In this document: positions 7,873 to 11,620 of the stretch, in pieces | How positions within the stretch are numbered: position 1 is the stretch's first letter | Layout: the number at the start of each line of letters is the position of its first letter | Source of the DNA: a virus | Lineage: Duplodnaviria > Caudoviricetes | IMG/VR virus record: IMGVR_UViG_3300029305_005724 | Location: 128,001-192,000 of that record | Strand: one strand, 5' to 3' | Length of the DNA stretch: 64,000 bases | Made by a program: the position numbers and the translations under genes | The notes under the pieces: model-generated | The model's input: the letters and a program-made list of their open reading frames with translations, nothing else | Database searches by the model: none | Told to the model about the DNA's origin: nothing

Positions 7873-7959
7873 ATAGATATTATATTAAGGCATGAATGTT
7901 ATTGGCTTTGTCGATTTATACTCATGCCTTAACTTATTAATATAGGGAGGTGTACACGC

Positions 7960-9225
7960 ATGCAAATGAAGGTAAATACTAGATATTCACGGTCAAATGA
8001 ATTTGACTATGAAACTAGACTTGAGCGCGTGAATTTAGATGAAGAACGCCGTCATGATGTATTGACAGGTAATGGCTTCATTGTTAGTTCACCAAAAGCA
8101 ATTAAAGATGATATTAAAGATCCGAATGGTATTTTCTCGACTAAGTACGGTCCTGGTCTTCAGGATGCAAATGCTTTCGGCAATAGATATCGTTGCAAAT
8201 GTGGCCATACCACATCTAGATTCTATCATGGTCTTACATGTGAAGTATGTGGAGAAAAGGTAGAATTTAAAGATGATAATTTTAGCATGTTTGGCTATAT
8301 TTGTCTTAAAGATCCGTATTTTATTATTCATCCTAATCTTTTTATGTCTTTAGCTTTCTTTATTGGAGAAAAGGATTTTATGGGAATCATTACTCCTGAT
8401 GATAGAAAAGATGAAGATGGTCATGACCTTGAAATTAAGAGACCAAAGGATGAACCTTTCCGAGGAATCGGAATGATTGGCTTCCATGATCAGTTTGACG
8501 AGATCATGGAATATTATTATCATAAGAAGCCTAACAAAAGGGATTATTATGAAAGTATTATGAATGATAAAGAAAAAGTATTCATTCAGTCAATTCCTGT
8601 ATTTACAATTCATTTACGTCCTTATAGACTTGATGGTGGAGTATTCCATTTTGAAGGTACTAATGCGACGTATAATATCATTGCAAACTTGGCAGCAAGA
8701 ATCAATGATGATAAAACTAAAATGAATAGAGAGAAGAAACCAAAGAATCAGCTTCTTTTCGATATGCAAATGAAATATAAAGAGCTGTATACTGAATTAA
8801 CAAAAATTATTTCTGGAAAGAAAGGTTCTATTAGAGCACTCTTTGGCGGAAGATATAATTTTACTGCACGTTCAGTTATAGCTCCTGGTCCTGATTTGAG
8901 AATTGATGAAGTATGGTTAAGTTATCCTTGTCTTTGCGGATTGCTTGAGCAAAGAATAATCAATATCTTGCACAAGACCTATTTCATGAAATATAATGAT
9001 GCATATAAACTTCTTCATGAATCTATGCATCAAGAAAATAAAATTATCCGTCAAATTATTGATGGTATTATTGCATCAACAGAAAGAGGAATTCCGTTAT
9101 TGATTAACCGAAATCCTACAATCTCGTATGGCGGTATTTTGCAAGTCTATTGCACAGGAATATCAAAAGGATATACGATGTTGATTCCGCTACCGGTACT
9201 TGAAGGACTGGCTGCGGATTTTGAT
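7960..9225 (+). CDS. RNA polymerase beta'-like N-terminal subunit, exon 1 (probably non-virion RNAP)
   Basis: GIFS, Zn finger CKCG..CEVCG, GKKGSIR..GGRYNFTARSVI, INRNPTI, and AADFD ending at 9225; preceded by an early-type promoter. Confidence 0.92.
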
Positions 9226-9665
9226 AGAAAACTGTCCTTATGCGAAAGCATAAGCCGATGTGGTTAATTGCTGGGAGTCTAGTCTGAAAATGATCATGAT
9301 AATCAGCAGCGAAGTAAGATTTATATGGCAGGATGGCGAAATTGGAAAACGCAGTCGACGGCCTTATATCGTTTACGTGGCTACCCCCGTGATATAAGAG
9401 TCGATTTACTGGTTCTAGTCCAGATCCAAACTGAGGTGTTCGAGCCCCTCTCCTGCCACCAAATCTTAAACGTTCAACGACTAGTTAGTAATAACGTAGA
9501 GCCCAAGCTTATGGGGTTAGGTTGTGTTTGGAAAGCACGTGAGTCCTATTAAATCGAAATGCTACAGTCTCATAAGAGATAAGATATAGTCTCAACTTAT
9601 ATGGAAACATATAGCAGTTCATAAGAGAACGGTATAGATGTTGCGAATCTATATGAAGATAAATG
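9226..9665 (+). ncRNA. Group I self-splicing intron (440 nt, IA-like) within the DFD^GD catalytic motif
   Basis: Exon ends in U paired to G in P1 (GAU|AG-AAAA-CUGUC); P2 CUUAUGC-GAAA-GCAUAAG; P AAUUGCUGGGA; Q AAUCAGCAG (9301); R GUUCAACGACUA (9472); S AAGAUAUAGUC (9581); P9 hairpins; terminal G9665. Removal restores AADFDGD in frame. Confidence 0.93.
9327..9461 (+). tRNA. Atypical tRNA-like element (Leu-like) nested in the intron P6 loop
   Basis: Acceptor GGCAGGA/TCCTGCC + A + CCA; UG at 8-9; D arm GCG-AAATTGGAAAA-CGC; anticodon stem GTCGA/TCGAT enclosing a ~40-nt hairpin; hairpin CTGG-TTCTAGT-CCAG; T arm GAGG(T)G-TTCGAGC-CCCTC. Confidence 0.7.
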
Positions 9666-9899
9666 GGTGACACATTGAATATCCTTTTAATCATCAACAA
9701 AGACTTTCAAGAAGCAGCAGAGAATGTATTTAATCCGAGAAATGCTATGTATATCTCTAAGAATGATGGAATGTTTAACAATTCCTACAATCATAAGAGA
9801 GATAGCATTATCAATATGAATACTCTTTGCCAACTTAGCAGAGCTCATTATACAGAAGAGCAGCTTAATAGAATTAAGATAGCTCAGAGCCGTGCTTAA
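9666..9899 (+). CDS. RNA polymerase beta'-like N-terminal subunit, exon 2 (spliced product 499 aa)
   Basis: Begins GGT GAC (GD), completing AADFDGD, then TLNILLI..VFNPRNAMYISKNDG; terminator 9906-9948. Confidence 0.9.
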   Translation, partial: GDTLNILLIINKDFQEAAENVFNPRNAMYISKNDGMFNNSYNHKRDSIINMNTLCQLSRAHYTEEQLNRIKIAQSRA

Positions 9900-10023
9900 T
9901 AAATGTAAAGAGTTCTACTGTAAAAAAGTAGAACTCTTTATTTTTTTTAATATGTGAATTGATGATATATTATAATATTGATAAAATTAAGTATTAATTC
10001 ATATATTTAAGGAGAATGGAATT

Positions 10024-10488
10024 ATGAAATATGGCTATATTTTTGTGCCTGAATCGTTTAGAAAGGATAAAGATTTTTTGGCACGAACTAAAGAAGAACT
10101 TGGTGTAGATGAAATGAGAATTGAATATGGTGAGAATGTTACTCAGAGACCAGAATTTGATGACATTATGTCTACTATCAAAGAAGGCGATATTATTGTT
10201 ACACGTAATATTTGCCATCTTTCTCATACCGGTAAAAATTTTATATCTTTATTGGCCAATTTACAAGCTTTAAAAATAGATCTTGTAGTAACAGAACAAG
10301 GCATAGATACTCGAGATTCAATTAATCTATTTGCTAATGTATTCAAAGCTGCTGAAGATCTTGATAAAGATTATTTAAGAAAAAGGCAAGCAGAAGGCAT
10401 AGCATTAGCAAAGGCTAATGGTGTATATAAAGGACGAAAACCTATTGATATCGATGAGACTTTATTGAAAGAGACTATGGATTCCTGA
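10024..10488 (+). CDS. Serine recombinase/resolvase-like protein with degenerate catalytic motifs
   Basis: RPEF...IKEGDIIV and RQAEGIALAKANGVYKGRKP are resolvase-like, but YxRVS reads YIFVPES and DRLxR reads CHLSH; no HTH before the stop. Confidence 0.7.
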   Translation: MKYGYIFVPESFRKDKDFLARTKEELGVDEMRIEYGENVTQRPEFDDIMSTIKEGDIIVTRNICHLSHTGKNFISLLANLQALKIDLVVTEQGIDTRDSINLFANVFKAAEDLDKDYLRKRQAEGIALAKANGVYKGRKPIDIDETLLKETMDS

Positions 10489-10576
10489 TGATAATGATGC
10501 TCCTCCTATAGAAGAGTATTACGAAGACGAAATTCAAGTTCAAGAAAAAGAAATTCCGGATACTATTCCTGAATTA

Positions 10577-11620
10577 TTGTATTTAAAGTATGAAAATATT
10601 AAGAATAAATTTTTAAAAGTATTCGATGCTTTAGATGCTATAAGAAATCTTCCTAGAAATGCAAATAAAAGATGCTATATGGCATATAATATTGTATTGT
10701 CTATAATAAAGCATTATCTTAATAATTGTGATAATAGTAATTATTTCAACTATGATGAAGATGCGATCCATTATTCTAATACTATAACACCATTTTATAT
10801 TTGGCGTATGTGCAAGAAAATATATCAATTTGATAATGATTTAGCAGATATGGTCAAACATTTGGAAGTTAATAAGTTGGATATGGATCCTAATATGTTT
10901 GAAAGATTACCATATTTAGGTATGTGCATGATAGCTATTGTAAATGACGAAGAAAAGGCAATTTTTGTTTGTCTCGACAAACGTCCGGTAGATGACTATA
11001 AATGCATATATTTCTATTCACTAGATATTGACGTTCTTAAAGAAGAACTTTCAAAGGATACGGTATTTACAGCTCCTATTAAATATTATCTTCCATTAAT
11101 AAAAGGAAAAACAATAGAAGAGTGTATTAAAATTGGAGTTGAACGAAATCATGATCCTATTGAAGAGTATTATGCTGAGAGTCGAGAAGATCATATACAT
11201 CAGTTTACAAATCTTCTTATGTATATCTTGGCAAAGAATGCTGACATAAGTAAGCATAAAAAGTTTATAAGATCTATAAATAATAGCAAGCCTACTATTG
11301 AGCAGGTTGATATAGATTATAAGCTCGATGAATATCATGAAGATCTAGCAGATGTAATGCATGTCGGAATTACGATTGGAGATCGTATCCGTGAAAATGC
11401 CACTATGCTAGAATCTATTGGAACAAAAAGAGGTCATAGGGTTGGCGTTAAAGGAAGCCATAAATCTAAAATACCTCATGTTCGAAAGGCGCACTGGCAT
11501 GGTTACTGGTGCAAGAATAAAAGAACTGGAGAAAGACAATTGGTAATGAAATGGGTTGCCGCTATTATTGTAAATGGAATGCAAGCCAAAAATATCAATC
11601 TTAGCTCCATAAGTAATTAA
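10577..11620 (+). CDS. AcrVA2/FinQ-like protein (putative); frame open from 10469
   Basis: WRxxKxIYxFDxDL, LPY and C-terminal PHVRKAHWHGYW...KWV motifs resemble the AcrVA2 family; no ATG with SD of its own. Confidence 0.55.
   Translation: MYLKYENIKNKFLKVFDALDAIRNLPRNANKRCYMAYNIVLSIIKHYLNNCDNSNYFNYDEDAIHYSNTITPFYIWRMCKKIYQFDNDLADMVKHLEVNKLDMDPNMFERLPYLGMCMIAIVNDEEKAIFVCLDKRPVDDYKCIYFYSLDIDVLKEELSKDTVFTAPIKYYLPLIKGKTIEECIKIGVERNHDPIEEYYAESREDHIHQFTNLLMYILAKNADISKHKKFIRSINNSKPTIEQVDIDYKLDEYHEDLADVMHVGITIGDRIRENATMLESIGTKRGHRVGVKGSHKSKIPHVRKAHWHGYWCKNKRTGERQLVMKWVAAIIVNGMQAKNINLSSISN

Follow-up and report, generated by a model that had tools for sequence, protein, structure and literature searches.

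Why an intron that divides the active-site motif of a phage RNA polymerase (RNAP) gene should carry, in one of its loops, an RNA shaped like a tRNA is the question raised by the DNA described here. The window analysed, a stretch of 64,000 nucleotides (C1:128001–192000), comes from an AR9/phiKZ-like jumbo phage of 224 kb (223,865 bp, 34.6% G+C, ~90% complete). As judged by comparative sequence analysis, the arrangement is real, selected, and apparently undescribed, and both of its components, the intron and the tRNA-like RNA, are of known kinds.

A group I intron in an RNA polymerase gene

The ORF beginning at 7960 encodes an RNAP beta' N-terminal subunit, with best matches among cultured phages to phiR1-37 g274, AR9 g270, and phiKZ gp55. 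AR9 g270 is annotated as a non-virion RNAP subunit, and an intronless homologue of the ORF gave the AR9 and phiKZ non-virion RNAPs as its top structure matches. Homology to AR9 g270 and phiKZ gp55 indicates that the split gene encodes the non-virion (late-transcribing) RNAP beta'-N subunit; late genes are transcribed by non-virion RNAPs (PMC7598289). A fast Rfam scan of the whole window missed the intron, and a match to RF00028 spanning 9212–9614 was recovered with permissive filters (64.4 bits against a cut-off of 50; E 5e-16). Together with the P/Q/R/S core and the division of the ADFDGD motif after ADFD, this match bears out the sequence-only reading, an earlier note on this DNA, which had placed a group I intron in the RNAP active site. 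Excision of 9226–9665 joins LAADFD to GDTLN and yields an open frame of 499 aa that contains ADFDGD and has the length of intronless homologues. The features of the split gene are as follows.

7931–7942, plus strand: putative late-promoter-like motif AACT-N6-TA, just 5' of the ribosome-binding site (weak; function presumed)
7960–9225, plus strand: exon 1 of RNAP beta'-N, ending in ...LAADFD
9226–9665, plus strand: group I intron, 440 nt, no ORF (RF00028 match, in-frame exon join)
9301–9309, plus strand: Q element (P4 3' strand, P6 5' strand; RF00028), a likely left crossover
9315–9322, plus strand: P6a 5' strand, paired with the 3' strand at 9461–9468 (pair probabilities 0.8–1.0)
9472–9483, plus strand: R element (P6 3' strand, P7 5' strand; RF00028), a likely right crossover
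9581–9592, plus strand: S element (P7 3' strand; RF00028)
9666–9899, plus strand: exon 2 of RNAP beta'-N, starting with GDTLN..., 77 codons plus stop
9905–9941, plus strand: terminator-like hairpin, recognised in the sequence, that would end the transcript

The 5' splice site forms a U.G pair in P1, and the last base of the intron is G. By eye, the intron is IA-like, with additional hairpins between P7 and P3'. No endonuclease ORF was found in 9226–9665, where the only ORF of at least 80 aa is the read-through end of exon 1. Introns at the ADFDGD motif are common in this clade. AR9 g270 is interrupted at the same motif, one codon earlier, by an intron carrying the HNH gene g271 (PMC11878797), which lies in P6 between Q and R, as does the module here. 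Comparable RNAP introns are those of phiKZ gp55/gp56.1 (intron-split) and PhiPA3 (PMC11878797). Unlike these three introns, the present one carries a structured tRNA-like RNA in place of an ORF and has no endonuclease.

Upstream of the RNAP beta'-N ORF, an AT-rich early-type motif is also found near 7875–7886. Across the whole genome of this phage, the AR9-type motif AACA-N6-T[AG] (consensus for late promoters from PMC7598289) is enriched upstream of genes (46 versus 11), and this enrichment raises the question of whether the phage has uracil DNA, as in AR9. Downstream, at 10024–11620, the window has two ORFs, one resolvase-like and one AcrVA2-like, that are fused as a 577-aa ORF in strains L069, L070, and L105, the split being polymorphic among strains.

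Anatomy of the module and selection on its fold

After the P6a 5' strand comes a 4-nt single-stranded leader (9323–9326) and then the module, which can be divided into the parts given below. Every element of P6a and of the cloverleaf that had been described from the sequence was found where it had been placed.

9327–9461, plus strand: tRNA-Leu-derived five-arm RNA, from position 1 to the encoded CCA (sequence, fold, shuffles)
9327–9333/9451–9457, plus strand: acceptor stem, 7 of 7 pairs
9336–9352, plus strand: Leu-type D arm with a 3-bp stem (9336–9338/9350–9352), A14, A15, and G18G19
9354–9405, plus strand: extended anticodon arm, made up of a 6-bp stem (9354–9359/9400–9405), a 3x1 internal loop, an 8-bp helix (9363–9370/9391–9398), a U-rich bulge, and a distal hairpin
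9409–9423, plus strand: variable-region hairpin with a 7-nt loop, invariant bar one purine
9433–9450, plus strand: T arm with a canonical T loop, T9437 bulged
9458–9461, plus strand: discriminator A73 (A9458) and CCA (9459–9461)

The perfect acceptor stem, the discriminator A with its CCA, the Leu-like D arm with its GG pair, and the second T-loop-like hairpin in the variable region are thus present as first described, and two points required amendment. The anticodon loop is indeed replaced, by 40 nt of structured sequence with no 7-nt loop, but a 6-bp anticodon stem is kept beneath the long arm. The one-base bulge in the T arm is real but not general, as the homologue considered below has a plain 5-bp stem; an assembly error was rejected because the bulge is present in every assembly covering it. 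The final A of CCA doubles as the first base of the P6a 3' strand, and does so likewise in the homologous copies L016, L024, and L106.

Of the hallmarks of a canonical class II tRNA-Leu, the module has the 7-bp acceptor stem, A73, CCA, U8, A14, A15:U48, G18G19, and the T loop, so that the bases of the tertiary core are retained, but not the 5-bp anticodon stem with a 7-nt loop and U33, nor a normal variable arm; the variable region is 27 nt here and 27–32 nt across copies. Its D arm, A15:U48, A73, and T arm closely resemble those of the tRNA-Leu genes in sister introns, and among ordinary tRNAs it is tRNA-Leu that scores highest against model R1, which was built from the module. Dinucleotide shuffles of the P6 insert combined a T loop, a 7-bp acceptor stem, and NCCA in 0 of 20,000 cases. 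The RF00005 search of the module region gave no call, and ARAGORN made none by default, returning "possible pseudogene" under relaxed settings. Two known RNA classes were tried and rejected: the tRNA-like domain of tmRNA (the third pair is C3-G70 or U3-A70 instead of G3.U70, a D stem is present, and there was no tmRNA call) and the bacterial Y RNA YrlA (the acceptor ends are open and carry CCA, and no Rfam match was obtained at E up to 10).

By folding energy over the whole intron, pair probabilities are ~1.0 for the acceptor stem, 0.9–1.0 for the long helix, and 0.85 for the T stem, whereas the anticodon stem, the D stem, and the variable hairpin reach only 0.13–0.21. In the homologues the cloverleaf is the fold of lowest energy, and in this module it lies at most 0.2 kcal/mol above the minimum. 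The D-loop sequence UUGGA (9342–9346) can also pair with UCCAA in the variable region (9425–9429), and the homologue has UUAGGA and UCCUAA at these places; the alternative fold lies 1–5 kcal/mol above the minimum in both lineages. The matched change may be due to chance or to an alternative fold that hides G18G19.

Homologues of the module were found with a pattern consisting of a tRNA 3' end followed by an R element, which uncovered a second lineage (L016 and L024), and by protein look-up, which added four further near-identical copies of that lineage (L106–L109). Module-specific patterns run against IMG/VR matched L016 alone, and a longer-gap pattern matched nothing there. Three matches in a GTDB scan were all due to chance, model R1 found no additional copy in 22 other jumbo-phage records, and the cassette had no match in cultured phages. 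Pattern matches lacking an intron core (10 of 11 viral and 10 of 14 metagenomic) were judged to be chance.

The L016 module is 76% identical to that at 9327–9461. Seven pairs are altered on both sides (three in the acceptor stem, three in the anticodon stem, and one in the long helix), with 98% of cells paired (0 of 500 shuffles), and two more pairs of the anticodon stem are changed on one side, by wobble. Sixteen substitutions fall at 66 paired positions and yet 32 of 33 pairs are retained, which indicates that the fold is under selection; random placement of 16 substitutions equalled this pairing in 0–75 of 200,000 trials. The anticodon stem was accepted, despite its low folding probability, because of this covariation. 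Since there are only two independent lineages, the covariation amounts to one contrast. Between strains of this phage, 22 of ~255 synonymous sites segregate in exon 1, against 0 of 135 positions in the module (Fisher p ~1e-4); the module does not differ significantly from the remaining intron (0 of 135 versus 4 of 305, p 0.32), and a recent arrival of the intron could be another cause of the low diversity.

These data bear on whether the module is merely a captured tRNA decaying, tolerated, in a neutral loop. The pseudogene call by ARAGORN is consistent with this, as are the dispensability of the loop in relatives and, in this lineage, the T-stem bulge and a 5-nt loss from the variable arm, both of which could be early decay. 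Compensatory changes in three helices largely refute it, however, and zero polymorphism among strains and a module G+C of 52% in a 35% genome also argue against it, so that decay is regarded as extremely unlikely. The sequence-only reading was to be given up if homologues showed no covariation; compensatory changes were found instead, in two lineages only, and with the lack of polymorphism they support a conserved tRNA mimic over a decaying tRNA.

The variable-region hairpin allows another reading, in which it is the true anticodon arm, its loop UU-CUA-RU presenting an amber anticodon, and the long arm has been inserted between it and the D arm. U33, CUA, and a purine at 37 are present in the loop of all copies, and some in-silico excisions lead ARAGORN to a weak CUA tRNA call. 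Recoding of TAG in this phage was nevertheless rejected: reading TAG as a sense codon moves the coding density only from 0.91 (table 11) to 0.92, and TAG is the stop of 6 of 192 genes. As the leftover variable region would be only 8 nt and a splicing enzyme was not found, this reading is scarcely credible.

Cargo of related P6 loops

To our knowledge, the loops of group I introns are regarded as carriers of protein genes. In the introns related to that at 9226–9665, tRNA shapes recur in P6. The second intron of this genome (C1:209620–210280; L011 17607–18233), in a sigma-like subunit gene, contains an intact tRNA-Leu(UAG) with CCA (C1:209862–209946); only one other standard tRNA is encoded in the genome. 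Among orthologues of this second intron, the cargo is tRNA-Leu(UAG) or tRNA-Leu(UAA). The P6 loops of L024, L093, L095, L096, and L098 also hold tRNA-Leu(UAG), and that of L089 holds tRNA-Leu(UAA), whereas L039 (G001, minus strand, near 2460–2415), an orthologue of the second intron, retains an acceptor/T-arm minihelix with CCA only. Intact tRNA-Thr(UGU) fills nearly the whole of P6 in L028 (1023–1098) and L029 (13259–13333), on the minus strand and at approximate positions in both. A further tRNA-like module of 111 nt, with an unrelated long arm, is found in P6 of L032 (1137–1247, minus strand), whose intron adjoins (upstream of) an exon ending in NADFD; it has a long D stem, an extended anticodon arm, a bulged T stem, and U73, and a U at −1 pairs with the last A of CCA. 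The part constant across all types of cargo is the acceptor stem, T arm, and CCA.

The L016 insertion site is occupied in L110 (2390–2752, Logan SRR24653702) by a three-level nesting: the P6 loop of an outer group I intron, in the sigma-like RNAP gene, contains a tRNA-Leu(UAA), and a group I-type intron of 274 nt (2426–2699) interrupts this tRNA after CUU. Once joined, the tRNA halves give a normal tRNA-Leu. Genes for cyanobacterial-type tRNA-Leu(UAA) with a group I intron are nested too, but in the reverse order, with the intron inside the tRNA; L110 has such an interrupted tRNA-Leu inside P6.

A comparable interruption was considered for the module itself, since loss of ~35 nt after C32 would leave U33-N34-A35-G36, that is, a decoding tRNA-Leu made by splicing. 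The triplet hidden behind the long arm is AAG in this module, UAG in L016, and GAG in L024 and L106; all three variants would read Leu codons on a Leu-type body, and CUU accounts for 2328 of the 5096 Leu codons of this phage, more than any other. The L110 tRNA is broken by a true intron in the equivalent slot, and the phage bearing L016 encodes RtcB (G001 C1:9541–10569, minus strand). Against this, the would-be wobble base is not constant even between near-identical copies and changes together with its helix partner, and positions 32 and 38 are C and G, closing the loop. The variable region would remain abnormal at 27–32 nt, with four unpaired bases before the T stem in L016. A bulge-helix-bulge tRNA intron was rejected, that geometry being absent (both bulges are on the 5' strand and the helix is 8 bp); no RtcB, Rnl1-type, or Rnl2-type ligase was found in the genome (90% complete; Rnl1 search run without a positive control), and the T5 RNA1 family, compared below, does not conserve a masked anticodon. 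An interrupted, decoding tRNA is thus considered very unlikely.

At the site of the present intron, the P6 loop of relatives is empty in L067 and L068 (22 nt in L067), holds a NUMOD4-type endonuclease-like ORF in L001 and L077 (weak scores) and, by similarity, in L065, or holds an ORF of unrelated type in L076. Many other introns of these phages have a short, empty P6 loop. With related P6 loops holding normal tRNAs, an endonuclease gene, or nothing, these introns appear to be carriers of small RNA genes. The literature searched, whose coverage excluded most subscription papers and leaves absence unproven, contained no description of a tRNA inside a group I intron loop, and the papers on CPR rRNA introns among it are silent on tRNA cargo.

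In L016 and L024 the cassette sits in a different intron, in a sigma-like subunit gene similar to AR9 g226 (weak match, E 3e-3). The flanks of the present intron are 65% (5' part) and 79% (3' part) identical to the empty-loop orthologue L067 but 51–54% identical to L016, near shuffle level (shuffle maxima 53–56%). P6a of the homologue is 2 bp shorter on each strand, and the 4-nt leader is shared. This pattern shows that the intron at 9226–9665 is a mosaic of L067-like flanks and an L016-like cassette, and we infer that the cassette spread between introns by recombination within the conserved Q and R elements.

Several further observations concern the introns themselves. The third intron of this genome (C1:199770–200665; L011 7770–8665) splits the DYDGD motif of a second beta'-like gene and holds a 208-aa NUMOD4/HNH ORF in P6. 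The relative carrying a homologue of the module (G001) has 12 group I intron matches, several of them tandem in the sigma-like gene. In the tRNA-Leu(UAG) intron of L093 and L094 (near 2280), R and S are altered yet complementary (GAUCA/UGAUC in P7), which, read from the sequences, is a compensatory change in a catalytic helix.

Release and possible function of the RNA

One way in which the module could act is on splicing, with RNase P cleavage, or a LeuRS serving as a CYT-18-like folding aid, tying the splicing of the RNAP gene to the host tRNA machinery. Every module-type case is in an RNAP subunit gene, a synthetase that acts as a group I splicing factor is known (CYT-18, PMC3984707), and the D-loop/variable-region pairing would offer an alternative fold in both lineages. 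The association with RNAP genes is partly ascertainment, however, because the searches began from RNAP genes, and orthologous introns in relatives have an empty loop or an ORF, with a P6 of only 22 nt in L067. According to PMC3201874, which cites original work on the P6-L6a region, a T4 td intron divided in two halves still trans-splices. The empty and ORF-bearing loops, the cassette in the intron of another gene, and the divided td intron indicate that the module and its cleavage are neither needed for nor fatal to splicing. The obligatory gate on splicing that had been suggested is therefore unlikely, and regulation of splicing in general is quite improbable. The same holds for a mixed role in which the intron is a carrier and host RNase P or LeuRS also tunes splicing of the late RNAP catalytic subunit through the tRNA-shaped domain.

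The module could instead be a processing tag in cis, with its tRNA top half cleaved by RNase P so as to open the excised intron and with no job for the released RNA; cleavage would speed decay of the intron and block its circularisation or reverse splicing into essential mRNA. The acceptor stem, T arm, and CCA, the sole part common to all cargo including the L039 minihelix and the L032 module, fit such a tag. These features are the ones recognised by RNase P, the CCA enzyme, synthetases, and EF-Tu. For a cut site, however, a covarying long arm and a near-invariant variable hairpin would be superfluous, the canonical tRNAs in the sister slot have intact anticodons, and the many short, empty P6 loops also speak against it. 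Because the long arm and variable hairpin are conserved as well, a product acting in trans is favoured over a pure cut site, and a cis tag is considered unlikely.

The explanation preferred, on which we are evenly balanced, is that the module is a non-decoding RNA shaped like T5 RNA1 that host RNase P and trimming of the 3' end release from the intron and that acts in trans. It would be a small RNA gene derived from tRNA-Leu and riding as exchangeable cargo in P6, a slot otherwise used for homing endonuclease genes. Since no late-promoter motif precedes the module, it would be transcribed solely within the RNAP pre-mRNA. The motif AAC[AT]-N6-T[AG] is absent before every nested tRNA, and the free-standing tRNA-Met has a late-promoter motif, so that the nested RNAs, if used, must be released by processing; intact tRNAs in P6 can work only if cut out, and a release route must then exist. 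Late promoters of the phiKZ type are not predictable from sequence (PMC7598289). A promoter placing +1 at the start of the module was rejected, as the motif lying ahead of it, AAGA-N6-TG, is a variant that shows no enrichment (13 versus 15) and is lost in L016, and TATG is not enriched either.

For the preferred explanation, the intron would self-splice without need of the module, host RNase P would cut at 9326/9327, and 3' exonucleases would trim back to the encoded CCA, mainly on the excised intron, to leave a stable RNA of 135 nt. Because P6a holds both the final A of CCA and the 4-nt leader, RNase P may be hindered. In the least supported step, the RNA would then act in trans through its acceptor end and elbow. 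Its likeliest role, and one likewise possible for T5 RNA1, would be that of a decoy, either chargeable or uncharged, for host factors targeting the top half of tRNAs (LeuRS, or toxins modifying the CCA end). Bacterial LeuRS does not read the anticodon. The decoy for anticodon nucleases proposed from the sequence is a poor fit, as there is no anticodon loop and the acceptor/T-arm/CCA half is what all cargo types keep; a decoy at the acceptor end would fit better.

More broadly, it is somewhat probable that jumbo-phage group I introns serve as host genes for small RNAs, the P6 cassette delivering tRNAs or their mimics via splicing and RNase P. Introns bearing snoRNAs are a eukaryotic parallel. 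As part of the preferred explanation, and with the same evenly balanced confidence, useful cargo would help an endonuclease-free intron to persist, and selection on cargo is thus a possible means of keeping such introns. The P6 slot carries RNA genes whose intact tRNAs are annotated as free-standing and whose mimics are missed by annotation. It also offers a natural series (empty, ORF, tRNA, intron-bearing tRNA, long-arm mimic, and minihelix) useful for probing the roles of T5 RNA1, T4 species 1 RNA, and other tRNA-like RNAs of phages, and the 440-nt intron is of a size that suits direct in vitro work.

These two RNAs qualify the earlier statement that no equivalent had been described, which holds for the nesting but not for the shape of the RNA. 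T5 RNA1 (AY543070 30501–30644; ~140 nt), annotated as a "tRNA-like stable RNA with unknown functions," is conserved in 487 phage records. It shares the five-arm plan of the module, with a Leu-type D arm, a 6-bp anticodon stem extended by an internal loop, helix, bulge, and distal hairpin, a variable hairpin with a 7-nt loop, and a T arm. Unlike the module, it is free-standing in a tRNA cluster, lacks an encoded CCA, and has a weaker acceptor end. Its score against model R1 (21 bits) is below that of ordinary tRNA-Leu, and the local alignment score of 63 (shuffle mean 45, 1 of 300) comes mostly from the D and T arms, so that homology is supported no further than a shared Leu origin. T4 species 1 RNA (rnaC, 139 nt), a stable late RNA, resembles the module in its acceptor-like stem, long bulged arm, variable hairpin, and T arm, but it has no Leu-type D arm, its similarity is not above shuffles, and it lies outside introns. 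In shape, the module is closer to T5 RNA1 than to T4 species 1 RNA. IStrons and riboswitch-linked group I introns (PMC3984707) likewise join a group I intron to a second functional element, but what they carry is a transposon or an aptamer close to the intron ends and not an RNA gene in P6.
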